NCBI GenBank assembly: GCA_028284075.1
Contig: JANQSL010000056.1
Span: 4,564 to 68,563, forward strand
Length of the DNA stretch: 64,000 bases
Source of the DNA: Candidatus Sumerlaeia bacterium
GTDB lineage: Bacteria; Sumerlaeota; Sumerlaeia; SLMS01; JAHLLQ01
Direction: 5' to 3'
Translations under genes and position numbers: made by a program
The notes under the pieces: generated by a model
Database searches by the model: none
What the model saw: the letters and a program-made list of their open reading frames with translations, nothing else
What the model was told of the DNA's origin: nothing
Shown: positions 18,337 to 31,643 of the stretch, piece after piece
How positions within the stretch are numbered: the first letter of the stretch is position 1
How the letters are laid out: each line of letters starts with the position of its first letter

Positions 18337-21192
18337 GTGTGCGGAGCGCGGACGTCCATGAGCAATGAAATTTTTCGAGAGTCAGGCGGAAACAGCGAGG
18401 TTCCGATCAACCTGCCTGACAACTCAATGAATTCGTATGACCCTGCTCATGCATCCCTTCAGGAGGAGCAGGGTAAAGAGTGGGAGAGTTTTGACGACCC
18501 GGTTCGCACCATCGATGAAAACCGAATCGATCAAGAATTACAAAGCAAGGAATGGAATCGTCCTCACATCGGGGAATCGGGTAAATTCAGTCTGCGCCGC
18601 ATCGTTGGAAAAGGGGGATTCGGTGAGGTACATGAAGCGCTACAGGGCAGTCTGAATCGTATTGTTGCAATCAAACGCCTGCGAAGGGATGTCCTTGCCC
18701 GAGCCCGTGAGGGAGGAGTGCGAATTACCGGGGGTCTTGTTCAGGAATTCGAACGGGAAGCAATCGTTTCAGCGAATCTTGAACACCCCAACATCATGCC
18801 CGTACACGAGCTTGGGACAGCAGAGGACGGAACACCTCTGATCGCGATGAAGTTCATCCGAGGCAACCCCTGGGACAAACAGATCGAGGAAGACTTTCCC
18901 CTTCTCAAGGTCGACGACTTCCTGGCGAAACACATTCCTATTCTCGTCGATGTTGCCCAGGCGGTGGCTTTTGCCCATTCGCGCGGAGTGACTCACCGTG
19001 ATCTGAAGCCCAGCCAGGTACTGGTTGGAAGCTTCGGTGAAGTAATTCTCACGGACTGGGGCCTGGCCGTCACCCACGATCCGAAAAGACTCAACCAGTT
19101 CGGGCAGGAGATCCCCGAGGATCTGATTCCCACTCTCGATACAACTCGCCATCCGGCGGGCACGCCGGCGTTCATGGCACCGGAGCAGGCATCGCTTCGT
19201 CCGGAGGGCATTGGTCCATGCACAGACGTCTACCTCCTGGGTGGAACCTTGTATTTTCTTTTGACTGGAAAACCCCCTCATAATTCCGAAGACAGTGCAA
19301 AGGCCTTCATGATGGCCGCTCTTGGGGAGGTGAAGCCTATTGAAACGGCCGCGGGTTTGAGACCCTGGCCCGAGCAACTTGGTGTCGTCGCGATGGAGGC
19401 TTTGGAGGCGGATATCGACAAGCGCACATCATCTGTTGAGTTGTTCATTTCGCAACTCAACGACTGGCTTACGGGCGCATCAGGCAAGCGCGAGTCTGAA
19501 AAACTGTGCCGCGATGCTTCGAGTCTTCTTCCGGATCTGAAGGACGAATATCGTGACTACGCAGCAGTTGCCATTCAGCTGAATCGCGCGGCGGCCCTCT
19601 GGCCGGACAACCCCGGTTTGCCTAGACTCAGAAACCACGTTCACGGTCGTTGGGCGGATCTCGCGCGCCGGTCCGGCGATTTCGCACTCTCCCGCATGCA
19701 GGCAGAGATGGTCTCCGACAAGGAGCGTCGGGAAGAGCTGACTAACGCCGTTGAGGCCTCCGAAAAGGAGAGGAAAGAAAAAGAGCATCAGCGCCGGAAG
19801 CTGGCATGGGCTGTGAGGGGATTACTTGCAGCCATCCTTGTTTTTGGCGGACTCTTTATCCTTCGTCTGCAGAAGCAGAGAGCGGCCACTGCTGCGGCGA
19901 TGAAGGAAGCGACCGCAGCAAGGGATGAAACGCAGGATTTAGCCTACTTCATGCTGAGCGACCTCGCTCAGTCTCTCGCTCCAATCGGTGATGCTGAACC
20001 GATGCGCCGTCTCGCATCACGAGTCATTGACTATTACGAGCAGTTGCCACTCGAGCGGCAAACTCCGGACGCACGATTCGAGCAAGGGCGGGCGAGGCAA
20101 GCCTTCGCACTGGCTCAAATTCAATTCGGTAATCTTGAGAGCGCGGTTCATGAACTTTCCAGGGTCGATGAGATTGCCAGGAACCTTGTACGAGAGGATC
20201 CGGTCAATGGTGACTATCTGACCCTGGCTCTCGATTCCGGAACGTATTCCACGGCAGTGGCGGCTTTCTCGGGGTCGTTTGTGAAACAACGCGGGCTGCT
20301 TGTCGAAACACTGGAACTGGCCTCCGGCTCTGTCCGGAGAGCCACCGGTCAGCCGGTGGAATTCACCGAGGGAGACGCAGGCCTGATTGAACAGGCTGAG
20401 TATGCATTTTCATGGGCGAATGCGCCGCAGGGATGGCGATATCGAACAGCCGCATTGACGAACTGGATCGGAGAGCTTTTGGAGCAGGAAGGGAAATACG
20501 GTCTGGCAAAAACGGCATACTCCACTGGTGAGCGAATGCACACGGCGCTGTATAGTGAAAGGCAAACCCCGAATTCTCAGCAGCGAATCCTCGAGAACAG
20601 ACTTGAGCAGGGACGAATTGAAGAACGGCGTGGAAACTATCGCGGGGCTTTGACGATCATTGCAAAAGCTGAATCCAGTGTTCTCGAATATCACGAAAAA
20701 GATCGCCTTGATGCACGATGGATTCGCGGGCTGGCGCTGACGCGTCGCTTCAAGTGCCGGGTCCTTGGGCGTATGAAGCAGTTTGGCGAGGCGATGATCG
20801 CCGCGAATCAATCGGTTGAGGCCTGCCGGGTTCTTCTCGATCGCGATGCCCGAAATGCAATCGTGCGCTACGACCTGAGCCTGGCGTTGCTGAACAGAGC
20901 TCTTGTTTTCCACAGCGCTGATGACATCTCAGAGGCGGAGGAAGACACGCGGGAAGCATACCGTCTCATGATTGAAGTGGCTGGTCCGGACCCGGAATAC
21001 AGGCCCTGGGCTCTTCATCTGACATCTTGTCGAAGAGTTTTCGACATGCTGTCACAGGAGATGATATCGAGTGGAGATCTTTCGGGTGGAGAGCGGCTTC
21101 GGGCTGAATTTCAACTCGATGACATGAAGCTCGACGTCTCCTCGGAAACATGGCTGCTCGATGGAGATTTTCTTTTCGGCAGCGTATACTGA
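18337..21192 (+). CDS. Serine/threonine protein kinase with a long C-terminal TPR-like/helical domain
   Basis: GKGGFGEV, AIKRL, HRDLKPSQVL, DWGLA and APE motifs, then one transmembrane helix and a helical repeat region. The track start at 18337 is GTG and the first ATG is at 18358. Confidence 0.85.
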   Translation: MCGARTSMSNEIFRESGGNSEVPINLPDNSMNSYDPAHASLQEEQGKEWESFDDPVRTIDENRIDQELQSKEWNRPHIGESGKFSLRRIVGKGGFGEVHEALQGSLNRIVAIKRLRRDVLARAREGGVRITGGLVQEFEREAIVSANLEHPNIMPVHELGTAEDGTPLIAMKFIRGNPWDKQIEEDFPLLKVDDFLAKHIPILVDVAQAVAFAHSRGVTHRDLKPSQVLVGSFGEVILTDWGLAVTHDPKRLNQFGQEIPEDLIPTLDTTRHPAGTPAFMAPEQASLRPEGIGPCTDVYLLGGTLYFLLTGKPPHNSEDSAKAFMMAALGEVKPIETAAGLRPWPEQLGVVAMEALEADIDKRTSSVELFISQLNDWLTGASGKRESEKLCRDASSLLPDLKDEYRDYAAVAIQLNRAAALWPDNPGLPRLRNHVHGRWADLARRSGDFALSRMQAEMVSDKERREELTNAVEASEKERKEKEHQRRKLAWAVRGLLAAILVFGGLFILRLQKQRAATAAAMKEATAARDETQDLAYFMLSDLAQSLAPIGDAEPMRRLASRVIDYYEQLPLERQTPDARFEQGRARQAFALAQIQFGNLESAVHELSRVDEIARNLVREDPVNGDYLTLALDSGTYSTAVAAFSGSFVKQRGLLVETLELASGSVRRATGQPVEFTEGDAGLIEQAEYAFSWANAPQGWRYRTAALTNWIGELLEQEGKYGLAKTAYSTGERMHTALYSERQTPNSQQRILENRLEQGRIEERRGNYRGALTIIAKAESSVLEYHEKDRLDARWIRGLALTRRFKCRVLGRMKQFGEAMIAANQSVEACRVLLDRDARNAIVRYDLSLALLNRALVFHSADDISEAEEDTREAYRLMIEVAGPDPEYRPWALHLTSCRRVFDMLSQEMISSGDLSGGERLRAEFQLDDMKLDVSSETWLLDGDFLFGSVY

Positions 21193-21279
21193 AAGCGGCT
21201 TCAAGCGATGAGTGTTTTCATGGAGGTGCTGTCTGTTCAAATCTCCGGATCGACCTCGCCTTTTTCCGTCACCTGTGCG

Positions 21280-21308
21280 TTGACCCTGCCTGCCAGCATC
21301 TGATAATC
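21280..21308 (+). promoter_or_regulatory. Sigma70-like promoter TTGACC-N17-ATAATC upstream of the Rrf2 gene
   Basis: Near-consensus -35 and -10 elements with 17 nt spacing about 22 nt upstream of the RBS AAGGATGG. An imperfect inverted repeat CTGCCAG...ATGGCAG overlaps the -10. Confidence 0.5.
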
Positions 21309-21330
21309 TTAAAACAAGGATGGCAGTCAA

Positions 21331-21753
21331 ATGATTCCCGTCACCGCTGAGTATGCTTTGCGCGCCGTTGTGTTTCTGATACAGAATCAGGATGAGTTCC
21401 ATGCTGCGTCAGCCATGAGTGAGCGAATCAGGGTTCCGGCAAGCTATCTCGTAAAGGTGCTGCAACAATTGACGCGCGCGGGTATCGTGCGCTCGCAGCG
21501 GGGTCCCGGTGGAGGGTATACTCTGGTAAAGAGTGCTGATCAAATTACAATCCACGATGTGTTCGAAGCGGTGGACTCTGTACCGGACCGAATCAAGTCC
21601 TGCCCCCTGGGCCTGAAGGGACACACGGAGCTTTGTGTTCTTCACAGGATGGTGGACAACGCCCTGCTTCAGATGGAAATTGCTTTTCGCACAACGAGCC
21701 TCCGCCAGCTTCTCGACACGGCGGACGAGATGGTTCCCTTGTGCGATCTCTAA
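21331..21753 (+). CDS. Rrf2 family transcriptional regulator (IscR/NsrR-like)
   Basis: N-terminal winged helix-turn-helix with the Rrf2 signature YALRAVVFL...GPGGGY. Cysteines lie in the C-terminal half. Confidence 0.9.
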   Translation: MIPVTAEYALRAVVFLIQNQDEFHAASAMSERIRVPASYLVKVLQQLTRAGIVRSQRGPGGGYTLVKSADQITIHDVFEAVDSVPDRIKSCPLGLKGHTELCVLHRMVDNALLQMEIAFRTTSLRQLLDTADEMVPLCDL

Positions 21754-23009
21754 GTGCCTGGCGGATCGCCGGTCGTGCCGCGGTCCGCCAGGACCGACAC
21801 CGCGATTTTCAGTATTAGTGTGTAAACCATCAAACCAAAAGCCCAGATGCCCACGGTGATCTTCCATTCCGTCACGCTGGGAAGATACTCCACAACTTCG
21901 TGCAACGTGCTCGGGATAAATCCGGGAACGATCAGTCCCATGCCTTTTTCGATCCAGATGCCCGCGAAGGTCATGAGGCAGGCTGCCGTGAGGAACGACC
22001 GGTTTCGGGTTGCCTGTGGAAGGAGAAACATTACCGCCGCGGCCACGTTGAGAAGTACGGCGCTCCAAATCCATGGAACCAGAGAGTTGTGTCCGTGAAG
22101 TCCGAAAAAGAGATAGCGCGCGGAGGCGGTATGAGAGCCGCCGCTGTAGAATTCGGTGAACAGCTCGCACAGCAGCAGGAAAATGTTGAGAAGGCACGTC
22201 ACGCGGATAATATTGAGAAGCGTACGACGAGCTCCCTCTCCGAAGCGGAGCCCGGCAAGTTTTTCAAGAACGTGAAAGGTGATGAGAATAAAGGCGGGAC
22301 CGGAGACAAAGGCCGAAGCGAGAAAGCGGGGTGCAAGCACGGCTGAGTTCCAGAGCGGCCTCCCGCCCAGTCCGCAATAAAGGAACGCCGTTATTGTGTG
22401 AATGGAGATGGCCCACACGATGGAAACGAACACGAAGGGTTTGTACCACGTCGGGTTTGGTTTCTGACGCAGGAACCGGATGTAGAGCAGGTACCCACAG
22501 ATATGCATGTTTAGAAGCAGGTAACCGTTCAGCACGATCACATCCCACGTGAGCATCGAAATGGGAAAGTTGAACCGGCCGATGAAAGGAAACAGGTGCC
22601 AGAAACGATCCGGACGGCCGAGATCAACCGTCACGAACAACAGACACACGATGATAGAGGCGATGGCAAGTAACTCGCCGACGATGGTCATGTCATGCAT
22701 GTCTTCATCGTGATAGAGATAGGCGGGAATGACCATCATGACGCCGCCCGCTGCAAGCCCCACGAAGAACGTGAAATTGGCAATGTACAGACCCCAGGAC
22801 ACGTGATCGGTCATGTTGGTGATCTGCATGCCGTTGGCGACCTGATTGGCCCAGGCATTCGCTCCCACAAGCGCGAGTGCGGTCAACAATGTCATCCATG
22901 CATAGAACAGCGGGCTTCCACTGGTGGCCTGACCGAACGAATGCAGCAGGAATCGCGGATAGCTCGTCACTTTGCGGGTGAAGCCGCCTTCATCGGCGAT
23001 GACGCTCAT
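21750..23009 (-). CDS. NrfD/PsrC-family integral membrane quinol-interacting subunit
   Basis: A ~420 aa polytopic membrane protein with NrfD-family pattern. Last gene of the cytochrome c / FeS / NrfD operon. Start MSVIADEGG. Confidence 0.85.
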   Translation of the reverse strand: MSVIADEGGFTRKVTSYPRFLLHSFGQATSGSPLFYAWMTLLTALALVGANAWANQVANGMQITNMTDHVSWGLYIANFTFFVGLAAGGVMMVIPAYLYHDEDMHDMTIVGELLAIASIIVCLLFVTVDLGRPDRFWHLFPFIGRFNFPISMLTWDVIVLNGYLLLNMHICGYLLYIRFLRQKPNPTWYKPFVFVSIVWAISIHTITAFLYCGLGGRPLWNSAVLAPRFLASAFVSGPAFILITFHVLEKLAGLRFGEGARRTLLNIIRVTCLLNIFLLLCELFTEFYSGGSHTASARYLFFGLHGHNSLVPWIWSAVLLNVAAAVMFLLPQATRNRSFLTAACLMTFAGIWIEKGMGLIVPGFIPSTLHEVVEYLPSVTEWKITVGIWAFGLMVYTLILKIAVSVLADRGTTGDPPGT

Positions 23010-23022
23010 TGTGGACTTTTTC

Positions 23023-23964
23023 CTATTCGTCGAAGAAATAGAAGAACTGAGGTTTGGTGCCAAGTTCCTCCTTCAATACAAAGACGCGCTTGTTTTCAAG
23101 GACCCAGCGAATTTCCGATTCCGGATCCAGAAGGTTGCCAAAGACCCGGGCCCCTGTCGGGCAGGCCTCAAGGCACGCCGGAAGCTTCCCCTTGCGCGTG
23201 CGATGCAGGCAGAACGTGCATTTCTCCATGACCCCTGCCGGCCGAACCCGGTTGCTCAAATATCCCTGATCAGGATTGATATCCTGACTGGGAATCTCCG
23301 GCTTCTTCCAGTTGAAGCGACGCGCATGGTATGGACAGGCTGCCTCACAGTAGCGGCAGCCAATGCACCAGTTGTAGTCAACCACGACGATGCCATCCTG
23401 TTCCTTCCATGTGGCCTCCACAGGGCAGACATGTACACAGGGCGGGTTTTCGCACTGCTGACACTGCACGGGCATGTAGAACTTGTCTTTTTGCGGAACC
23501 GGATGGTTGTAGTTGGCGTCCCCTTTCTCGAAATCGATGCCACCCTTCTCCATTTCAAACACGCGAATGTAGGACTGGTTCGTTTCGCGGTCATGATTGT
23601 TCTCGATATGACACGCCTCCGCGCACTTGCGACAGCCGATACAGATGCTGAGGTTGAGCGCGTACCCGAACTTCACTCCTTCCTTTGGGCGATAGTCGTT
23701 GATGGATACATCGACTCCATGGTCCTCGACGGCTTCCCGCTCCAGGCGTGCAAGGACTGTTTGGAGTTCGCCGGGTTTCAGTTCCTTGTAGTGTTTCTGG
23801 AGGAACTCGTCGACACTCATGTCGCTGGTCCACTCCGTGATGGGAGCGATGGCTTTCGCGAGGGCCGCCATTCCGAGCATCGCGGCACCACCCTTCAGTG
23901 CTGTGCGACGATCGAATCCGATCTTGCCGGAATCATGTTTGGGAGGCTTTGAATCTGTACTCAT
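23023..23964 (-). CDS. TAT-exported 4Fe-4S ferredoxin-type subunit (NrfC/PsrB-like)
   Basis: Twin-arginine motif DRRTALKGG and multiple CxxCxxCxxxCP clusters. Confidence 0.9.
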   Translation of the reverse strand: MSTDSKPPKHDSGKIGFDRRTALKGGAAMLGMAALAKAIAPITEWTSDMSVDEFLQKHYKELKPGELQTVLARLEREAVEDHGVDVSINDYRPKEGVKFGYALNLSICIGCRKCAEACHIENNHDRETNQSYIRVFEMEKGGIDFEKGDANYNHPVPQKDKFYMPVQCQQCENPPCVHVCPVEATWKEQDGIVVVDYNWCIGCRYCEAACPYHARRFNWKKPEIPSQDINPDQGYLSNRVRPAGVMEKCTFCLHRTRKGKLPACLEACPTGARVFGNLLDPESEIRWVLENKRVFVLKEELGTKPQFFYFFDE

Positions 23965-24608
23965 TCGCTATGTCTTTCGTTGTGATCCGAGGCATTTTGG
24001 GAGCGAATACTGATATGGCGATCTCTGGGCGGAGGAGCGGGGTACATCTGTGGAAAAGCCGGGCTGTGGGGATCGTGACACTGCACGCAGCTATTGCGTG
24101 TTCGCGGACCCAGAGTCGTGTCCCAGTATCCCGTCATGCCACCATGCGACCCGTTCTCATAGTCTCTCGCCTGAGGTCCGTGACATTGTGCGCAGAGCTG
24201 CATGGCATTCGCCCAGGGCGTGTGTGTGCCATCCGCGAGGCGGAGCTCTTCATTGTTGCCGGGATCGTGGCAGGACGCGCAAACCAGCTGTCCATGCTCG
24301 AAATTCAGGCCGAGGTGGAAGCTCTCCAGTTCCGCGGCGGATCGGACCGGGACGGCATTCGTTCGCGTTGCGTGGCATGTTGAGCAATCGGCCGTGACAG
24401 GTTCCCCGGATCCCGTCGTGAATCCCGTTTCAATAGCAGGCGAGGGACCCGGGCTGCGTGTATGAACAGGAAACCGCTGGATGGCTTCCTTTGGCTTATT
24501 CGCAGGCTCAGTACTCTGCTGGCTGGTCCCGATCGCTTGGGAGAGTACTCCCGTCAGCAGGCTAAGTGATACAATACCAGTAATCTGAAAAGCCGTCTTG
24601 CGCCTCAT
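23961..24608 (-). CDS. Tetrahaem c-type cytochrome (periplasmic)
   Basis: Signal peptide and four CxxCH motifs: CSTCH, CASCH, CAQCH and CVQCH. Overlaps the FeS gene by 4 nt. Confidence 0.85.
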   Translation of the reverse strand: MRRKTAFQITGIVSLSLLTGVLSQAIGTSQQSTEPANKPKEAIQRFPVHTRSPGPSPAIETGFTTGSGEPVTADCSTCHATRTNAVPVRSAAELESFHLGLNFEHGQLVCASCHDPGNNEELRLADGTHTPWANAMQLCAQCHGPQARDYENGSHGGMTGYWDTTLGPRTRNSCVQCHDPHSPAFPQMYPAPPPRDRHISIRSQNASDHNERHSE

Positions 24609-24670
24609 GAGGGCCTCTCCAGCGAGTTCGCAGATAACGGAAGAAGTGATGCTTCGGATGTATGAGAGAT

Positions 24671-24701
24671 ATCAAGACAAATTTATCCGATTTGTCTTGA
24701 T
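24671..24701. promoter_or_regulatory. Perfect 12-7-12 inverted repeat ATCAAGACAAAT-TTATCCG-ATTTGTCTTGAT in the divergent promoter region
   Basis: Read directly from the sequence. It lies between the cytochrome c operon start (24608, minus) and the napD start (24760, plus). Confidence 0.6.
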
Positions 24702-24759
24702 TCCGAGCGCTACGATCCCTAAATCACTCATCAACACTGTAAATGATGGAAGGTGTACG

Positions 24760-25026
24760 ATGCCTGTCAGCGGCTTGGTACTAACACTTTCGGCGAACGG
24801 GGGAACTGCGGCGGAGGCAATCTCGGCTCTCAAGGCACGTCCCGAAATCGAATGCGAGGCTCCGCGAGGCAACAAACTGCCCGTTGCCGTGGATACATTG
24901 GATCGCACGAAAGATCAGGCGCTTTGGCGTTGGATCAACGAGCTGCCGGGTGTTGATTTCATCGATGTTGTCTTTATCTCGTTTCCTGAAGACGAGGATT
25001 CCCCGGAAGTGGCGGAGGCCTGCTGA
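24760..25026 (+). CDS. napD: NapD chaperone for NapA (TorD-like)
   Basis: ~88 aa NapD-like sequence ending 1 nt into napA (TGATG). RBS GGAAGG. The upstream part of ORF 24598..25026 crosses the operator region and is not coding. Confidence 0.75.
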   Translation: MPVSGLVLTLSANGGTAAEAISALKARPEIECEAPRGNKLPVAVDTLDRTKDQALWRWINELPGVDFIDVVFISFPEDEDSPEVAEAC

Positions 25027-27473
25027 TGAAACGACGGGATTTTCTCAAGCGCAGCGCGATGGCGGCGGCGGTTGCCGCAGCGGGCCCGCTGCCCGGTCAG
25101 ACGACCGTGCCGGAGTATACGGAGTCTGCTGAAGGCGATACCGGGTTGGAGTGGGAAAAAGCACCCTGTCGGTTCTGTGGAACCGGGTGTCATGTCATGG
25201 TTGGTCGAGAGAACGGAAAGGTCCGCGCCATTGCCGGTGACAGGAAAGCTGACGTGAACAAGGGCCTGCTGTGCGTAAAGGGCTATCACGTCGGCATGAT
25301 CCTCTATGGTCAGGATCGTTTACGCTATCCAATGCTGCGGAAGAATGGCGAGATGACCCGGATTTCGTGGGACGAGGCGATCGACGTTATTGCCGATCGG
25401 GTGGAAGCTGATCCCGCGGCTTTTGCCATTTATGGCAGCGGACAATGGACAATTCCCGAAGGCTATGTTGCGCAGAAATTCATGAAAGGCGGTTTGGCAA
25501 ACAACCATATCGATCCCAACGCACGACTCTGCATGGCCTCCGCGGTGACCGGTTTCATCAGTACCTATGGCGTGGACGAACCGGCGGGATGCTATCAGGA
25601 TCTGGATGAGTGCGATGTACTGATTATGTGGGGGAACAATCCGGCGGAAATGCATCCGGTTCTCTTCTCGCGCGTCGTCGACCGGCGTTCCCGCGGCGAG
25701 GAGATCCTGATGATCGATATCGGGACACGCCGCACCCGGACCACCGATCATTGTCAGCACTATCTTGAGTTCAAACCCCATACGGATCTTGCCATCGCCA
25801 ACGGCATCGCTCATCTGCTGATTAAAAACGGAACCTGGGACAAAAAGTTCGTCGAGAATCACTGTAACTTCCGGGCGGACACCGAGAAGCCAACGCTTCT
25901 CGGCAGGGAGATTACGTTCGAAGAATACAAGAAACTGGTCGAGCCGTATACCCCGGAGTACGTCGAGAAAATCTCAGGTGTTCCAGCAGAAAAAATCCGC
26001 CTCCTTGGAGATCTGTTCGGACAGCGCGATATACGGATTTGCAGCCTTTGGTGCATGGGAATGAACCAGCACACACGAGGCACAGCGATTAACAACCTCG
26101 TACACGGCGTTCATCTCTTGAGCGGGCATTTTGGCCGCCCCGGTGATGCTCCGACGAGCCTGACAGGCCAGCCTTCGGCATGCGGAACGGTCCGGGAGGT
26201 CGGAACTCTCGCGCATGCACTTCCCGGGGGACGTGTCGTTGCAAACGCCGAGCACCGGGCGGAGACGGAAAAACTCTGGAATCTTCCGGAGGGCCGCGTG
26301 AATGCCAAACCCGGATATCACACGGTTCTCATGTGGGAGAAATTTTGCACTCCAACGGAGGAAGGCGGAGATATTGGAACGATCTGGGTTCAGGTCACCA
26401 ACCCGGGACAAACTCTTCCCAACCGCCACAAGTTGTTCGAAGCGAAAAGGGATCTGAAAGACAAGTTTCTCATTGTCTCCGAAGTTTATCCGACTGCCTC
26501 GACGGAACTGGCGGACCTGGTTCTCCCCGCAGCGCTTTGGGTCGAAAAAAACGGGGTCTACGGGAATTCGGAACGGCGAACACAACAATGGTTTAAGATG
26601 GTCGAGCCTCCCGGTGAAGCCCGCGACGACTGCTGGCAGACACTCGCCGTTGCGCGACGGCTTTACGAACGAGGCTTTGAGGCAATGAAGGGGAGAGATG
26701 GCCGATTCATTTTCGATATTCGCAACGAAGATGGAAGTGAGATTCCCTATTGGAAATGGGAGCACTACTATGACACGAACGTGGACAAGGCCCTGTTCGA
26801 GGAGTACCGGCAGTTCACACGTTTAAAGCACAAAGACCTCGCACCCTACGATGAGTACGTCAGGGCGCACGGATTACGCTGGCCTGTTGTTCAGCAGCAG
26901 GACGGAACCTGGCGCGAGACGAAGTTCCGGTTTTCGGAGTTCGATGATCCCTATGTTACAAAGGGTGCGGAATTTGAATTCTACCATTCAGTTACAAAGG
27001 ACGGGCGGGCGCTGATATGGTTCCGTCCTTACGAAGAACCTCCGGAGTCTCCTGACGATGAATTCCCAATGTGGCTCTCCACGGGTCGAGTTCTTGAGCA
27101 CTGGCATACCGGCACGATGACCATGCGTGTGCCACAGCTTCGCCGTGCCATGCCCGGCGCGTATGTGGAAATGAATCCAAAGGATGCGGCACGCCAGGGT
27201 ATTGTGAACGGCGAACGCATACTTGTCGAGACGCGCCGCGGCAGCATGGAATTGCCGGTTTGGGTCGAGGGCCGGGGACATCCTCCGGAGGGCACCGTCT
27301 TTATTCCGTTTTTCGATGAGACGCTGCTTGTGAATGATTTGACCCTTGAAGCCTACGATCCTTTCTCGAAACAGCCGGACTTCAAAAAGTGCGCGGTACG
27401 GGTTCGTCGTATACCCAATGAGCCTTATCAGGAAAAGGGTTTGGCTCCGGTGAATGCGAATGCGCCAGGTTGA
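25026..27473 (+). CDS. napA: Periplasmic nitrate reductase catalytic subunit NapA
   Basis: TAT signal RRDFLK, N-terminal CRFCGTGC [4Fe-4S] motif, Mo-ligand region NARLCMASAV, 815 aa. Confidence 0.95.
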   Translation: MKRRDFLKRSAMAAAVAAAGPLPGQTTVPEYTESAEGDTGLEWEKAPCRFCGTGCHVMVGRENGKVRAIAGDRKADVNKGLLCVKGYHVGMILYGQDRLRYPMLRKNGEMTRISWDEAIDVIADRVEADPAAFAIYGSGQWTIPEGYVAQKFMKGGLANNHIDPNARLCMASAVTGFISTYGVDEPAGCYQDLDECDVLIMWGNNPAEMHPVLFSRVVDRRSRGEEILMIDIGTRRTRTTDHCQHYLEFKPHTDLAIANGIAHLLIKNGTWDKKFVENHCNFRADTEKPTLLGREITFEEYKKLVEPYTPEYVEKISGVPAEKIRLLGDLFGQRDIRICSLWCMGMNQHTRGTAINNLVHGVHLLSGHFGRPGDAPTSLTGQPSACGTVREVGTLAHALPGGRVVANAEHRAETEKLWNLPEGRVNAKPGYHTVLMWEKFCTPTEEGGDIGTIWVQVTNPGQTLPNRHKLFEAKRDLKDKFLIVSEVYPTASTELADLVLPAALWVEKNGVYGNSERRTQQWFKMVEPPGEARDDCWQTLAVARRLYERGFEAMKGRDGRFIFDIRNEDGSEIPYWKWEHYYDTNVDKALFEEYRQFTRLKHKDLAPYDEYVRAHGLRWPVVQQQDGTWRETKFRFSEFDDPYVTKGAEFEFYHSVTKDGRALIWFRPYEEPPESPDDEFPMWLSTGRVLEHWHTGTMTMRVPQLRRAMPGAYVEMNPKDAARQGIVNGERILVETRRGSMELPVWVEGRGHPPEGTVFIPFFDETLLVNDLTLEAYDPFSKQPDFKKCAVRVRRIPNEPYQEKGLAPVNANAPG

Positions 27474-28275
27474 AACTTTTTCAGACCGAACGAAGGGTAG
27501 CCGCCTTGTATTCATCGGCGTTGCGTGTGTGCTTGCGGCGTCGCTGGTGGGGTATCTTGTTGGTTTGTCGCAGGAACCATACGTTACCGCACTTCCACGC
27601 ACGACAACGTCCTACGCTCCGTCCACTGTGATGTCGGCTGTCTCTTACAGTGATATGGATGTTATGTCTGCGGGACCGAACGCCGGTTGGAAGTCCGCCA
27701 CTGTTGCGGAGCTTGCAGGGGACTCGCCTCCGCCCCCCGTCTACGAGGATCAGGAGCAACTGCTGGCCTTGAAGAAGGCATCGCTCGCGGAGCGTGCGGA
27801 AAATCGGGCATTCAACGGTGCACCTCCCCTGGTTCCTCACCCCATCGACGGCTTGATGCTTGAATCGTGCATGGCATGCCATGGCGAAGGACTCGCTCTT
27901 GGCGAAGTGCGGGCTCCACGGATGAGCCATGAATACTACACCAACTGCGTTCAGTGCCACGCGCCTCTCGGCCAGCCTTTTCAGGAGGTGGGTTTGGACA
28001 CTCCGAGTGTTTTTGTGGGATTGCGGGCGCCGCTTGAGGGAGCAAGAGCCTGGGAGGGAGCGCCGCCAATCATTCCCCATGCCACATACATGCGAAACGA
28101 TTGCATGAGTTGTCATGGCCCCGCGGGTGCACCGGGTCTTCGCACGAGCCATCCGGAACGGCATAATTGCCAGCAGTGTCATGCACCTTCCGCGGAACTT
28201 GACCAGGCGTCCATCGGCGACTTTGACGAAAGCGGATTCATGAGCATATTCGACTCGCGGAACGCCGGAAATTGA
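27454..28275 (+). CDS. napB: Tetrahaem cytochrome made of two tandem NapB-like dihaem modules
   Basis: Two repeats of the NapB pattern: GAPPLVPH...CMACHG...CVQCHA, then GAPPIIPH...CMSCHG...CQQCHA. N-terminal signal anchor. Overlaps the napA 3' end. Confidence 0.8.
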   Translation: MRMRQVETFSDRTKGSRLVFIGVACVLAASLVGYLVGLSQEPYVTALPRTTTSYAPSTVMSAVSYSDMDVMSAGPNAGWKSATVAELAGDSPPPPVYEDQEQLLALKKASLAERAENRAFNGAPPLVPHPIDGLMLESCMACHGEGLALGEVRAPRMSHEYYTNCVQCHAPLGQPFQEVGLDTPSVFVGLRAPLEGARAWEGAPPIIPHATYMRNDCMSCHGPAGAPGLRTSHPERHNCQQCHAPSAELDQASIGDFDESGFMSIFDSRNAGN

Positions 28276-28823
28276 GTTCCGCGCGCACGATCTCGCGTCG
28301 AGGATTTGTAAAGCTCGGATTCCTCCGAACGGAAGCGTCACCGGAGCCTCAGGGTTCCAGGCGGCGGATTCCGGTTCACAGACCTCCGGGTGCTGTCAGC
28401 GAAGCGGAATTTCTTTCGGGCTGCACGAAGTGCGAGAAATGCATGGATGCGTGCCCACACGATGCCATCGTTCACGCTCCGATTCGATTCCGTGAAGCGG
28501 CGGGAACCCCCACAATCGATCCATCGAATTCTCCCTGCCGAATGTGTACCGACGCACCCTGCATTCCTGTCTGCCCCGAAGGTGTTCTGCTGCACGACCG
28601 TGGAATGAAAATGGGTGAAGCCCGAATTAATATCCTGAACTGCCTCGCGCATCAGGGAACGTTCTGTTCGACCTGTGTGGAGCAATGCCCTGTCGATGGC
28701 GCCATGAGGCTCGAAGACGGAAAACCGATCATTAACTCAACCGCCTGCACGGGATGCGGTGTGTGTCAGTACATGTGTCCCGCACCTGTGAATCCGCTGA
28801 TGATTCTTGCTCGCCAAACCTGA
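28272..28823 (+). CDS. NapG/NapF-type polyferredoxin (four 4Fe-4S motifs)
   Basis: RRGFVK twin-arginine-like N-terminus and four Cys clusters (CTKCEKCMDACP, CRMCTDAPCIPVCP, C..CSTCVEQCP, CTGCGVCQYMCP). Confidence 0.8.
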   Translation: MSSARTISRRGFVKLGFLRTEASPEPQGSRRRIPVHRPPGAVSEAEFLSGCTKCEKCMDACPHDAIVHAPIRFREAAGTPTIDPSNSPCRMCTDAPCIPVCPEGVLLHDRGMKMGEARINILNCLAHQGTFCSTCVEQCPVDGAMRLEDGKPIINSTACTGCGVCQYMCPAPVNPLMILARQT

Positions 28824-28835
28824 ACCGGAGTTCCC

Positions 28836-29150
28836 ATGGCAGACGATTCACAAAGCGATGCGATTTTGCCGGAACTGGGTGATTCGGTCCTGAGGGACAG
28901 GCAAATTCACGCATTGCTGGCCGACTACGAGAGAGAAGTCAATATTCACGGAGTCCTTCTCCGGCGCGGCGCACGGAATCACACAGATGGTTCGAGCGAT
29001 CTCTCCGCCCGTGAAGCGGTCCTCCGGTTGATGGAGGGAGAAGTCAGGGGAGTCCAAATTCGTTATCTATGGGAAGGCTGTGAGTGGTGGGACACGCTAA
29101 TGCAAACGCCGGAGGGCATCCGTCTCGTGCGGATTCGCCACGAAGTCTGA
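28836..29150 (+). CDS. Hypothetical protein (104 aa)
   Basis: A compact ORF between the napG-like gene and the secretin gene. No family recognised. Confidence 0.4.
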   Translation: MADDSQSDAILPELGDSVLRDRQIHALLADYEREVNIHGVLLRRGARNHTDGSSDLSAREAVLRLMEGEVRGVQIRYLWEGCEWWDTLMQTPEGIRLVRIRHEV

Positions 29151-29200
29151 CAGATTTTGAATTCAAGGCATTCAAATTCCAGCATCGAAAGGATTGTATC

Positions 29201-30697
29201 GTGAAAACAACTCTCAGCAAGACGGTTTCCACGATAGGTGTGGTCGCGTGGCTCGTTGCGGGTACATCGGAATCAGAAGCGCAGACGCAACCGGCGGTTG
29301 CGGCAAACAACCAGGACGAGGAAATCAACATCCACCGCACGGTGGATCAGGATGCGGAGTCCTTCGCGATTCTGCGGTCCGGCGACAAGAAGGAAATCAA
29401 TCGATACGTAACCCGCGTCTATAACCTCGATCATGCGAACCCGTACGAGATCCTTCCTTATCTCCGAACCGTCGCAGCCCTTGAAAAGGGCAGTGTTATT
29501 ACCGCTTGGAATCCTCAACCCGACGGAGCTCCTCTGAGCTGGATTCAGGTTAATGTGCCCGAGTTTCAGATTCCCTACATTGATCAAGCCGTAAAGGCGT
29601 ACGATGTGCCTGGATTTGCATCCATACCGGGCGACATCAAGTTCAGCTATCGAACCCGCTATCGCGATGCATCCGATATCGCAGCCCACATTCGATCGAC
29701 GACCCTGTCGCCGGATGGACTTATTCTCGCGGATTCGGACACAAACACGATCTATGTTCAGGACTCTCCCAGTGACTTCAAGCGTGTATTGTCTCAAATT
29801 CAGTTCTATGACATTCCAGTCCCACAGATCGACATCGAAGTCACAATCATCGAACTGACGAAAGTCGATCAGACGTCTCTTGGCCTTGACTGGGATGCCT
29901 GGAAGACCGCTCTGGCAGGAAGCGGTTCTCTCTCTGCCGACAACATTCGCTCTGACACCAATACCACCCCGCAGTTTGAATCATGGAGCAGTGCATGGGA
30001 AGGCATGATTTCGCTCGATGCGACAGCCGCCGCCCGATTCCTCAACTATCTCGTCGATACGGGAGACGCCGAGGTGATGGCGCGCACGACTCTGACTATT
30101 AGCAACGGAAAAACGGTGATTCTGGGCTCGGAAACCCAGGTTCCGGAGTACGAGTATCAGTATAGCTCCGCTATCCAGGCGTCCGAACTCAAGGAGGTCG
30201 CCGACGAGCGTCAGCTTCCAACCGCAGAGGGAATGACGCTGATCGTGCACCCGAACATCGCTCTCGATACCGCCCGGCTTGAAGTCGAACTGCTCACTGT
30301 TGCTCCCGTTGCCATCGGCAAGACGGGCGATCCGATCTACTCAACACAATCCTTGCTTTCCGACCTGACGCTTTCTCAGGAACAACTCTACAAAATCGGA
30401 GGCCTGCGACGGAAGGTGGAAGCAACGGAACGCAAGGGCTTACCGCTTCTTCGCGATGTTCCTTTTTTGAAGTATCTTTTCTCGAACGAGGCGACCATTC
30501 TCCGCGACACGGAACTCTATGTTTTCCTGAAACCCACCTGGACAGCACCCCTTGTTCCCGATCTTCAGGGTATGAAGATTGACAGCACCGTCAGTGCCGA
30601 TCACGTAACCGGCATTCTTGCGGCGAATCCCAACATTGCCATGAGTCTGACGGATGCGGAGCTGCTGCAGGAATACTTCGACGCTGAAGATGATTGA
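29201..30697 (+). CDS. Secretin (GspD/PilQ/CpaC superfamily outer-membrane channel)
   Basis: Signal peptide, secretin N domains and the conserved C-terminal secretin block GLPLLRDVPFLKYLFSNEATILRDTELYVFLKPT. GTG start at 29201 after the RBS AAAGGA avoids overlap with the upstream ORF. Confidence 0.85.
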   Translation: MKTTLSKTVSTIGVVAWLVAGTSESEAQTQPAVAANNQDEEINIHRTVDQDAESFAILRSGDKKEINRYVTRVYNLDHANPYEILPYLRTVAALEKGSVITAWNPQPDGAPLSWIQVNVPEFQIPYIDQAVKAYDVPGFASIPGDIKFSYRTRYRDASDIAAHIRSTTLSPDGLILADSDTNTIYVQDSPSDFKRVLSQIQFYDIPVPQIDIEVTIIELTKVDQTSLGLDWDAWKTALAGSGSLSADNIRSDTNTTPQFESWSSAWEGMISLDATAAARFLNYLVDTGDAEVMARTTLTISNGKTVILGSETQVPEYEYQYSSAIQASELKEVADERQLPTAEGMTLIVHPNIALDTARLEVELLTVAPVAIGKTGDPIYSTQSLLSDLTLSQEQLYKIGGLRRKVEATERKGLPLLRDVPFLKYLFSNEATILRDTELYVFLKPTWTAPLVPDLQGMKIDSTVSADHVTGILAANPNIAMSLTDAELLQEYFDAEDD

Positions 30698-30725: not shown

Positions 30726-31643
30726 ATGAAGGGCCGAGTTGTTTCCGTGAATATATCTGGAGGCGGCATCCCCAAGATGCCGGTTGATACGGTTGAGGTG
30801 CTCGCAACGCATTTACAAGGCGACGGCCGAAACCACGAGAAGCACAATCGAGAATGGCGTGCCGTCTCATTGCTCGATGTGGAACAACTCGGCCGATTTC
30901 AGCAACTCGGATTTGGAGTACGGCCGGGGAGTATGGGCGAGAACCTGACAATCGAAGGAATCGACTGCCGCGAGCTGATGCCAGGCGACATCGTTGACTT
31001 TGAAAACGGCGTTCGTCTGGAAATCACAGAGCCTCGAATTCCCTGCTACGTACTCGATGGCATACATCCGACCCTTAAGGAGCATTCCTGGGGAACATGC
31101 GGGACAATGGCTCGAATTGTTTCCGGTGGAACGATTATGGCAGGAGAGACGTTTCAATTCGTCGCCAATCGTTTCACGGAATCGGAATCGTGTTGGGAAC
31201 ACACAGGAGTGATTTTTGACCGGACGGGTTCAGCAGGGAGCGATATTGACGGTCTCAAGGGAGTGCTTGGAGAAGTTGTCATCAGAGTTGTTGTGGCTGA
31301 TCAATCCCTCAATATCAGCGCGCTTCGAGAAATTGATTCGCAAATCCTGTTTGTCACAATCGATCAGAACGAAGTCTCACCGTACCTGCTGCGTGTTCTA
31401 ATCGACAGATACGTTGATGGGTTACTCATGTTTCGCACGGAGGCGGGGCGAAAAATCACCCCGTCTCCGGCGATTCTGCCGTCTACTCTTCTCGGTTCGT
31501 TTCTGGAATGTATTCATGCAGCTGATTCGAAGGAATCGCTTCTGAAAACACTGAAGCCGTCCTGGGTCACTATTTCGAATCGTCTGGCTGACTTCGCTCA
31601 TGATGACCGGGCGGAGGAGAAGGCCGCAATTTCATCGCTTTGA
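30726..31643 (+). CDS. MOSC domain protein with a C-terminal extension of unknown function
   Basis: N-terminal MOSC beta-barrel pattern with the conserved Cys, in the segment RIPCYVLDG...GTMARIVSGG. Confidence 0.7.
   Translation: MKGRVVSVNISGGGIPKMPVDTVEVLATHLQGDGRNHEKHNREWRAVSLLDVEQLGRFQQLGFGVRPGSMGENLTIEGIDCRELMPGDIVDFENGVRLEITEPRIPCYVLDGIHPTLKEHSWGTCGTMARIVSGGTIMAGETFQFVANRFTESESCWEHTGVIFDRTGSAGSDIDGLKGVLGEVVIRVVVADQSLNISALREIDSQILFVTIDQNEVSPYLLRVLIDRYVDGLLMFRTEAGRKITPSPAILPSTLLGSFLECIHAADSKESLLKTLKPSWVTISNRLADFAHDDRAEEKAAISSL

Follow-up and report, generated by a model that had tools for sequence, protein, structure and literature searches.

A conserved NrfD-type three-gene module as candidate quinol dehydrogenase of a nap locus without NapC and NapH

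Two divergent operons in a Sumerlaeia contig

We analyzed a 64,000-nucleotide stretch of DNA from Candidatus Sumerlaeia bacterium (GenBank assembly GCA_028284075.1, contig JANQSL010000056.1, positions 4,564 to 68,563 of the forward strand), hereafter the window, which encodes a periplasmic nitrate reductase (Nap) next to a divergently transcribed three-gene module that is proposed to supply it with electrons from menaquinol. All coordinates below are positions in this 64-kb window, and the genes were called from a listing of open reading frames (ORFs) combined with profile searches against Pfam and NCBIfam. The locus comprises two compact divergent operons, napDAB2-napF-like-orfX on the plus strand and cytochrome-FeS (iron-sulfur)-NrfD on the minus strand, within which start and stop codons overlap or nearly abut. 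Each gene named in the original prediction, which was made from the sequence alone, was recovered in its place by the ORF listing and the profile searches; the end of the nap operon, set at 28823, turned out to be too early because one more gene, orfX, extends the operon to 29150.

The first gene of the module (23961-24608, minus strand) encodes a periplasmic tetrahaem cytochrome c of 215 aa, with CxxCH motifs at residues 75, 110, 139 and 174 and an N-terminal hydrophobic segment; it produced weak matches to c3/c7/NrfB-like Pfam families (NrfB-like, E 0.003) and no match to DsrJ in the profile search. Its stop codon overlaps by 4 nt the start of the second gene (23023-23964, minus strand), the 313-aa product of which is a periplasmic subunit with four [4Fe-4S] clusters, exported by the twin-arginine translocation (Tat) pathway and similar to DsrO, PsrB and NrfC (PF13247, E 7e-22). 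This FeS subunit has a twin-arginine motif, DRRTALKGG, and four cluster motifs with 16 Cys in all, and scores 196 against the cutoff of 200 with the NCBIfam DsrO model; the best PDB sequences are PsrB (2VPW_B, 5e-39) and the C-terminal FeS domain of ActB (6BTM_B, 9e-34), the alignment with the latter being confined to residues 771-944. The third gene (21750-23009, minus strand) encodes an NrfD-family integral membrane subunit of 419 aa (PF03916, E 2e-38, 133.5 bits against a cutoff of 25.8), with about 10 transmembrane segments in the hydropathy profile and about 10 long helices in the AlphaFold2 model (pTM 0.79). Among the NCBIfam models, DsrP (NF045798) scores 434 against a cutoff of 350, followed by QrcD (53), HybB (40), NrfD (35) and TtrC (29). 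The top four matches in a Foldseek search of the PDB are all ActC (6BTM_C, 8K9E_C, 6F0K_C and 6LOD_C; E 4e-10 to 1e-8, TM-score 0.67-0.72), led by 6BTM_C (E 4e-10, TM-score 0.72), with ActF chains ranking after the ActC chains; the closest PDB sequence found by phmmer is ActC as well (6F0K_C, 8e-11), and no Dsr complex structure was among the matches of this sequence search.

The membrane subunit is, accordingly to these scores and to the predicted structure, DsrP-like by sequence and ActC-like by fold. The placement of the module with respect to the DsrP, QrcD and PsrC families was derived from hidden Markov model scores, the fold search and a published tree; the grouping of DsrP with ActC and ActF in that tree (PMC8076601) agrees with the sequence and fold results for the window subunit. 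The initial description of the module as NrfBCD/PsrBC/ACIII-like (ACIII, alternative complex III) captured the kind of complex; the sequence of the module points to DsrOP and its fold to ActC.

On the plus strand, napD (24760-25026; 88 aa) encodes the putative chaperone for the Tat signal peptide of NapA. The assignment combines gene position with a weak, sub-threshold but full-length Pfam NapD match (E 0.035; residues 3-72 on positions 3-71 of the 76-position profile); in the related loci described below, which are numbered L001 onwards, the gene in the same position has a Pfam NapD match in L003 and weak ones in L001, L086 and L088, and tblastn matches of 28-47% identity were obtained in most of them. 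The catalytic subunit, with molybdenum bis-molybdopterin guanine dinucleotide (Mo-bisMGD) and [4Fe-4S] cofactors, is encoded by napA (25026-27473; 815 aa). It passes the NCBIfam model NF010055 (905.6 against a cutoff of 904), matches the Pfam domains Molybdop_Fe4S4, Molybdopterin and Molydop_binding, and has Cupriavidus NapA as its best PDB relative (3ML1_A, E 4e-215), followed by 2NYA_A and 1OGY_A. The NapA equivalog match is accompanied by the Tat motif KRRDFLK, the N-terminal [4Fe-4S] motif CRFCGTGC and NARLCMASA with the presumed Mo-ligand Cys. The protein is a genuine NapA and, given that it falls under the TIGR01706 cutoff (872.7 against 930.55), one of a divergent lineage.

NapA is accompanied by NapB in a variant form, a tandem duplication with four haems (NapB2; 27454-28275; 273 aa). 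Pfam NapB is matched in two stretches (53 bits against a cutoff of 25.1), there are four CxxCH motifs, and the two halves, each of which carries APP(L/I)(V/I)PH...CMxCH...CxQCHAP, are 48% identical over 54 residues (E 7e-14), a real internal duplication with two dihaem NapB modules in one chain. The NapB2 orthologues in the related loci have four haems in 53 of the 53 scorable cases and an N-terminal hydrophobic segment in 47 of the 53. Because the N-terminus of the window protein is strongly hydrophobic and has no obvious cleavage site, NapB2 probably carries a membrane anchor, which suggests that NapAB2 is held at the membrane beside the module.

The next gene (28272-28823, plus strand) encodes a ferredoxin of 183 aa with 16 Cys and, by prediction, four [4Fe-4S] clusters, for which tblastn matches were found in 36 of the 64 loci of the Nap clade defined below. 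It scores under the cutoffs of both NapG (NF007012, 101.9 against 269) and NapF (TIGR00402, 68.2 against 102.2). Its RRGF motif precedes residues that are charged rather than hydrophobic, with no hydrophobic Tat h-region, and in this respect the protein resembles the cytoplasmic NapF of E. coli. Hence, of the designation "napG/F-like" in the original prediction, the NapF-like part stands and the NapG-like part does not: NapG was rejected on the lack of an export signal and the score under the NapG cutoff. By analogy, the NapF-like ferredoxin is probably a maturation factor of NapA, outside the quinol dehydrogenase.

The last gene of the nap operon is orfX (28836-29150, plus strand; 104 aa); in 46 related loci, tblastn matches of 26-59% identity to it also lie where the nap operon ends. 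The protein has no Pfam match at E ≤ 10, no PDB sequence match and no signal peptide; its AlphaFold2 model (pLDDT 78) is an alpha/beta fold (beta-alpha-beta-alpha-beta3) with no Foldseek match in the PDB better than E 0.09. We propose that orfX encodes a conserved cytoplasmic factor.

What is missing from the locus is a membrane quinol dehydrogenase of either known kind. E. coli NapC and NapH probes, checked on the NCBIfam models (463 bits with NF007906 and 471 bits, respectively), produced no tblastn match with E < 0.01 anywhere in the window, in agreement with the absence of both at the locus noted from the sequence alone. The only multi-haem ORFs in the window are NapB2 and the tetrahaem cytochrome. 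Accordingly, neither a membrane-anchored tetrahaem NapC/NirT, as in NapC-dependent Nap, nor NapH with a Tat-exported NapG, as in NapGH-dependent Nap, was found in the 64 kb. Among 83 related loci, a NapC/NirT-like gene lies within 10 kb in one, and the NapH probe matches only the ferredoxin part of NapF-like genes.

Conservation of the nap linkage and the wider family

Close homologues of the NrfD-like protein, with about 70% identity, number in the thousands in Planctomycetota and Verrucomicrobiota, and all three of the homologue contexts that were looked up (Polystyrenella longa, a 7.4-Mb genome and a 4.7-Mb metagenome-assembled genome (MAG)) showed the same divergent arrangement of nap and module. 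A scan of one genome per GTDB species produced at least 597 relatives, of which the best 80 were taken with 10-kb flanks; the window proteins were located in each locus by tblastn, and a neighbor-joining tree of the NrfD-like proteins was constructed. The window protein belongs to a clade of 64 loci at 61% identity or more, denoted here the Nap clade, which spans Planctomycetota, Verrucomicrobiota and Myxococcota, with labels including Phycisphaerae, Pirellulaceae, Planctomycetaceae, Opitutales, Limisphaerales, Verrucomicrobiaceae, Myxococcaceae, Polyangiaceae and Archangium. NapA of 60-75% identity and the tandem NapB lie beside the module in 61 of these 64 loci; the modules without them lie on contigs of 3.2, 3.6 and 6.4 kb, too short to show nap. 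The composition of the module is conserved along with its position: cytochrome orthologues contain exactly four CxxCH motifs in 60 of 60 scorable cases, and the RR motif is present in 57 of 63 FeS orthologues.

Within the Nap clade, the arrangement is divergent in 53 loci and co-directional in 8, where nap is downstream of the module in 7 (gaps between high-scoring segment pairs of about 35-460 bp, some of 35-80 bp) and upstream in L033. The persistence of the adjacency through three gene arrangements argues for selection on the linkage. Sampling from the side of nap, a scan of metagenome contigs with the tandem NapB as the single query gave one locus (L084), so that the reverse co-occurrence was examined by a protein search and four context look-ups; homologues of the tandem NapB on long contigs, including those of the cultured Crateriforma conspicua and Planctomycetes bacterium K23_9, are accompanied by the same divergent module in all four cases. 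Complete genomes with the locus include CP036281 (P. longa), CP036526 (K23_9), CP087563 and SJPZ01 (C. conspicua). The original prediction had called for a co-occurrence analysis of the module with nap; with 61 of 61 informative Nap-clade loci and 4 of 4 NapB-seeded loci, the pairing is more than chance.

Three of the related loci merit separate mention. L055 (CAYHRZ010000146.1), labelled 'uncultured Klebsiella sp.', contains a module and a nap operon of the type found in Myxococcota and in the Planctomycetes-Verrucomicrobia-Chlamydiae (PVC) group, and has probably been binned or labelled wrongly. In P. longa (L001, 1-3540), the nap locus is flanked by a gene for a second molybdoenzyme of 760 aa, preceded by a 581-aa fusion of a 4Fe-4S domain and a DmsC/NrfD-like membrane domain; this pair resembles the operon of Lacipirellula parvula in which a NapA gene lies beside an FeS-NrfD fusion (PMC6995999). 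In the 7.4-Mb genome CP087563 (L002, 1-3359), the nap locus adjoins genes for a NorB-type nitric oxide reductase, an Rrf2 protein 47% identical to that of the window and NnrS, which suggests an island of N-oxide respiration or nitric oxide response.

The sister clade (53-58% identity; L058-L083, L089 and L090) retains the cytochrome-FeS-NrfD triad and mostly lacks nap. One of its sub-clades has an octahaem cytochrome c of about 490 aa encoded directly downstream of the NrfD gene in 14 of 14 loci (for example, L074, 8242-12754), and an octahaem cytochrome is also nearby in L058, where the module runs in the same direction as the genes for a diverged NapA (47% identity) and an ordinary dihaem NapB. 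The octahaem protein matches PF13447, and its best PDB relative is 4QO5_A (2e-46), the Ignicoccus octahaem nitrite/hydroxylamine reductase, followed by HAO-like proteins. Other members of the sister clade adjoin cytochromes with 6-7 haems and porin-like proteins. No HAO-family octahaem cytochrome was detected in the 64 Nap-clade loci; association of the module with another reductase, which the original prediction had named, together with a napC or napGH elsewhere in the genome, as evidence against itself, was found only in the sister clade, with the HAO-family octahaem protein.

An exhaustive HMMER search for distant relatives yielded 298 clusters at E ≤ 1e-30. Among the representatives examined, the layout cytochrome-FeS-NrfD-octahaem is found in proteins 48% and 33% identical to the window subunit, and the layout FeS-NrfD-cytochrome in proteins 37% and 35% identical. 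Because clades and layouts differ in the linked periplasmic gene, the family can be described as a set of modules each genetically tied to one periplasmic partner, with the window clade being, by this genomic criterion, Nap-specific.

Shared promoter region and flanking genes

The Rrf2-family regulator that had been noticed beside the module is encoded at 21331-21753 on the plus strand (140 aa; PF02082, E 4e-28; TIGR00738, 103.5 against a cutoff of 73.3); its gene converges on that of the NrfD-like protein, and the two share 4 nt. The protein passes the superfamily model only; it scores under the equivalog cutoffs of NsrR (48 against 182), IscR (62 against 208) and RirA, and accordingly is not of the NsrR/IscR type. 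Its motif CPLGLKGHTELCVLH, with two Cys and a His, marks a second type of Rrf2. Of the 64 Nap-clade loci, 22 contain an Rrf2 gene. The type found in many loci has three Cys (CPFGPxWCGxxxPCPLH) and follows the NrfD-like gene at a distance of about 44-160 bp, as the fourth member of the module operon (L012, L014, L019-L021, L024, L028, L031, L035, L040 and L053).

The divergent starts of the two operons are separated by a 151-bp intergenic region, and a perfect 12-bp inverted repeat, ATCAAGACAAAT-N7-ATTTGTCTTGAT (24671-24701), is located almost exactly midway. The corresponding loose pattern, CAAGANNAA-N(4-12)-TTNNTCTTG, has a single occurrence in the window, where 0.01 would be expected. A related palindrome of the 11-6-11 form, TCAAGAATAAA-N6-TTTATTCTTGA, was found in 14 related loci, always less than 600 bp from the 5' end of the cytochrome gene, with 0 matches in shuffles of the 1.49 Mb searched, and most of these 14 loci carry the three-Cys Rrf2 directly after the NrfD gene. 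The simplest reading of this correlation is that the 24671-24701 palindrome is a candidate shared operator of the Rrf2 protein. A scan of 21000-29600 for sigma-70 promoters and terminators gave 9 promoter-like sites against 4.1 expected, of which a single one, in front of the Rrf2 gene, has a convincing position.

Directly upstream of the Rrf2 gene, the window encodes a 951-aa Ser/Thr kinase-like protein with a long helical-repeat C-terminus (18337-21192, plus strand; the kinase assignment comes from a Pfam match in the gene table). The nap operon is followed by genes for a secretin-family protein (29084-30697, plus strand) and a MOSC-domain protein (30726-31643, plus strand). Both were rejected as parts of the system; none of the related loci encodes a counterpart of the MOSC protein, which therefore probably has no connection with it.

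Electron supply to Nap and its meaning

Comparison with characterized systems places the module within the broad class of quinol-interacting NrfD complexes and apart from each of the members compared here. It shares with NrfABCD of E. coli a haem-free NrfD membrane subunit, a Tat-exported protein with four [4Fe-4S] clusters, a small multihaem cytochrome and a soluble periplasmic N-oxide reductase as partner, but the window proteins score far under the NrfD (35 against 348) and NrfC (129 against 378) equivalog cutoffs, the cytochrome has four haems where NrfB has five, and the acceptor would be NapAB2 rather than NrfA; no nrfA was found in the window, so that an NrfBCD module proper is not what is encoded there. 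ACIII (ActABCDEF) is likewise a quinol:cytochrome c oxidoreductase built from multihaem, FeS and NrfD-like subunits, and the window NrfD-like protein corresponds to its roughly 10-helix ActC subunit. Unlike ACIII, however, the window module lacks the molybdopterin-like ActB1 domain, ActD, ActE, ActF and a second NrfD-like subunit, has a cytochrome of four haems instead of the five of ActA, and is linked to nap, not to an oxidase. DsrJOP of the DsrMKJOP complex is matched by the membrane and FeS subunits, which are DsrP- and DsrO-like by sequence, whereas DsrM (dihaem b), DsrK (CCG-domain FeS) and the trihaem DsrJ were found neither near the locus nor in the gene tables of seven related loci. 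On these membership tests, the module was rejected as a true DsrOP, NrfCD or PsrBC.

Two further groups resemble the module in composition. The DsrOhPh-tetrahaem locus of Desulfobulbales/cable bacteria and beta/gammaproteobacteria, which was set apart from the true Dsr complex in 2026 and for which quinol-to-periplasm electron transfer was suggested while the function was left open (PMC13047784), also encodes a tetrahaem cytochrome with DsrO- and DsrP-like subunits. It differs in gene order (FeS-NrfD-cytochrome as opposed to cytochrome-FeS-NrfD in the window; the representatives with the former order are 35-37% identical) and in that no link to Nap is stated for it (PMC13047784). The octahaem-linked FeS/NrfD modules, namely, MccACD/SirACD and the HAO locus of Thermosulfurimonas dismutans, have the same pairing as our sister clade, with NapAB2 replacing the octahaem enzyme in the window clade; for the HAO-linked four-gene NrfD locus of T. 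dismutans, a role in nitrite reduction has been suggested (PMC5276818). From the side of Nap, the canonical operons (E. coli napFDAGHBC, Paracoccus napEDABC and Wolinella napAGHBFLD) share NapA, NapD, a NapF-like protein and NapB with the window, in contrast to which the window locus lacks NapC, NapG and NapH, and has a tandem four-haem NapB, the additional orfX and a diverged NapA. NapC and/or NapGH are normally given as the link between Nap and the quinone pool, and a 2021 review names just these two (PMC8139620); in planctomycete MAGs, ACIII clusters have been reported near nap or nar (PMC10732223).

We consider it likely, with a probability of roughly 0.7, that the locus encodes a Nap that is independent of NapC and NapGH and receives its electrons from a dedicated three-subunit quinol:cytochrome c oxidoreductase, a minimal relative of ACIII and DsrJOP. 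The suggestion that the divergent module is the missing quinol dehydrogenase of Nap gains support from the clade-wide co-occurrence with nap, and the dedication of the window clade to Nap is indicated by the linkage of this clade to nap and of the sister clade to the HAO-family octahaem protein. Under this scheme, menaquinol would be oxidized at the haem-free, roughly 10-helix NrfD-like subunit, the proposed site of this reaction, and the electrons would reach the tetrahaem cytochrome c by way of the four [4Fe-4S] clusters in the Tat-exported periplasmic FeS protein and continue, via the probably membrane-anchored NapB2, to the [4Fe-4S] cluster and Mo-bisMGD of NapA, which would reduce nitrate to nitrite. 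By analogy with E. coli, the maturation and export of NapA would be served in the cytoplasm by NapD and the NapF-like ferredoxin, with the orfX product as an additional cytoplasmic factor. Because the operons share a single 151-bp promoter region with a central palindrome, Rrf2 bound to that palindrome could switch both together.

Several observations weigh against this interpretation. The direction of electron flow is assumed, and relatives such as Qrc reduce quinone. The one-to-one dedication of module to acceptor is not universal: in two sister-clade loci, L059 (gene order cytochrome-FeS-NrfD-octahaem-napD-napA-napB) and L083, one module adjoins both an octahaem cytochrome and nap. The palindrome in the window differs from the 11-6-11 motif in both sequence and spacing, and the connection between Rrf2 and the palindromes is correlative. 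Most importantly, a second donor (napC, napGH, cymA or nrfH) could be encoded elsewhere in the genome, the absence of NapC and NapH reported here pertaining to the window and, for the related loci, to the 10-kb flanks. Furthermore, a generic cytochrome c route to NapB2 is conceivable, because ACIII is common in Planctomycetota, being encoded in 75% of the species (PMC8076601), and in Campylobacter jejuni Nap is fed via a cytochrome bc-type complex (PMC6195509).

Of the competing explanations, the one that survives best, although we regard it as improbable, is that the module is a general quinol:periplasmic cytochrome c oxidoreductase, in effect a small ACIII, that feeds a shared cytochrome pool, with the adjacency to nap reflecting co-regulation within an island of anaerobic respiration. 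The ActC-like fold of the membrane subunit, the paralogous modules next to other acceptors (the HAO-family octahaem protein, or 6-7-haem cytochromes with porin-like proteins) and the double adjacency in L059 and L083 are all compatible with such a role, and the DsrOhPh-tetrahaem locus of cable bacteria was read by its authors in a similarly general way (PMC13047784). A module serving a shared pool would, however, hardly account for the strict partition, in which all 61 informative Nap-clade loci have nap and none has the octahaem protein that is found in the sister clade, for a nap linkage that is kept through three arrangements in three phyla, or for the lack of any other recurrent acceptor gene in the Nap-clade flanks.

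Far less probable is operation in reverse, whereby a periplasmic donor would reduce menaquinone via the tetrahaem cytochrome in the manner of Qrc, and NapAB2 would be fed by ACIII or by a soluble cytochrome c. NrfD-family complexes run in either direction, those of the Qrc and Hmc types reducing quinone, and QrcD and QrcC are the second-best NCBIfam matches of the window proteins; in addition, most planctomycetes encode ACIII (PMC8076601). Against this stands the fact that it is a reductase, and no periplasmic dehydrogenase (hydrogenase or formate dehydrogenase), that recurs beside the module; moreover, the sister clade is tied to a member of a reductive octahaem family, with the nitrite/hydroxylamine reductase 4QO5 as its best solved relative, and the closest fold, ActC, belongs to a quinol-oxidizing complex. 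Finally, the possibility that the FeS and NrfD genes are DsrO and DsrP of a DsrMKJOP complex, or a polysulfide/tetrathionate-type sulfur module unrelated to Nap, can be practically dismissed despite the passed DsrP cutoff, the near miss with DsrO and the names of the homologues in public records (see below), given that the gene tables of the seven loci with 10-kb flanks contain no DsrM, DsrK or PsrA/TtrA domains and no molybdoenzymes other than NapA and the one unrelated enzyme in L001, that the cytochrome has four haems and does not match the DsrJ model, that the cultured carriers, planctomycetes that live as aerobic heterotrophs, are not known to reduce sulfate or oxidize sulfur, and that the HAO-linked sister protein also passes the DsrP model (418 bits), which is thus not Dsr-specific.

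The last point has a bearing on annotation. Public records call the homologues 'sulfate reduction electron transfer complex DsrMKJOP subunit DsrP' or 'polysulfide reductase', and the DsrP model NF045798 is above its cutoff for Nap-linked and HAO-linked proteins alike (the window protein and the homologues P0023, P0051, P0095 and P0103). With no DsrM, DsrK or DsrJ nearby, a four-haem cytochrome and an HAO-linked paralogue that passes as well, the name DsrP is best taken here to denote family resemblance, not function, and genomes of PVC bacteria and Myxococcota are probably mis-annotated systematically in this respect. Such DsrP calls can yield false sulfur-cycling assignments for MAGs of Planctomycetota and Verrucomicrobiota. 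Conversely, the split between the Nap clade and the HAO-octahaem clade offers a functional reading for part of the loci that combine DsrOP homologues with a tetrahaem cytochrome, the role of which was left open (PMC13047784).

Full-text searches of the literature turned up no account of Nap combined with such a module, although an earlier one may exist. The building blocks, Nap on the one hand and the NrfD/FeS/cytochrome module on the other, are familiar; the combination appears to be conserved, widespread and unrecognized. In metagenome surveys, many PVC and myxobacterial genomes are scored as napAB-positive with neither NapC nor NapGH at the locus, and for these the module described here is a concrete candidate donor. 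The proposal is open to experiment because cultured carriers exist, including P. longa, C. conspicua and Rhodopirellula spp.

In a broader and more tentative form, which we consider rather doubtful as a whole, the module would represent a third class of Nap input beside NapC and NapGH, standard for nitrate use in Planctomycetota, Verrucomicrobiota and Myxococcota and energy-conserving if proton-translocating, with NapB2 and the orfX product docking NapA into a membrane supercomplex. Proton or ion translocation has been proposed for the NrfD subunits of the ActC/DsrP type (PMC8076601), so that the system is relevant to the question of direct energy conservation in periplasmic nitrate reduction. 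If the module does translocate protons, nitrate reduction in these bacteria would be directly energy-conserving, unlike that by NapC-dependent Nap.

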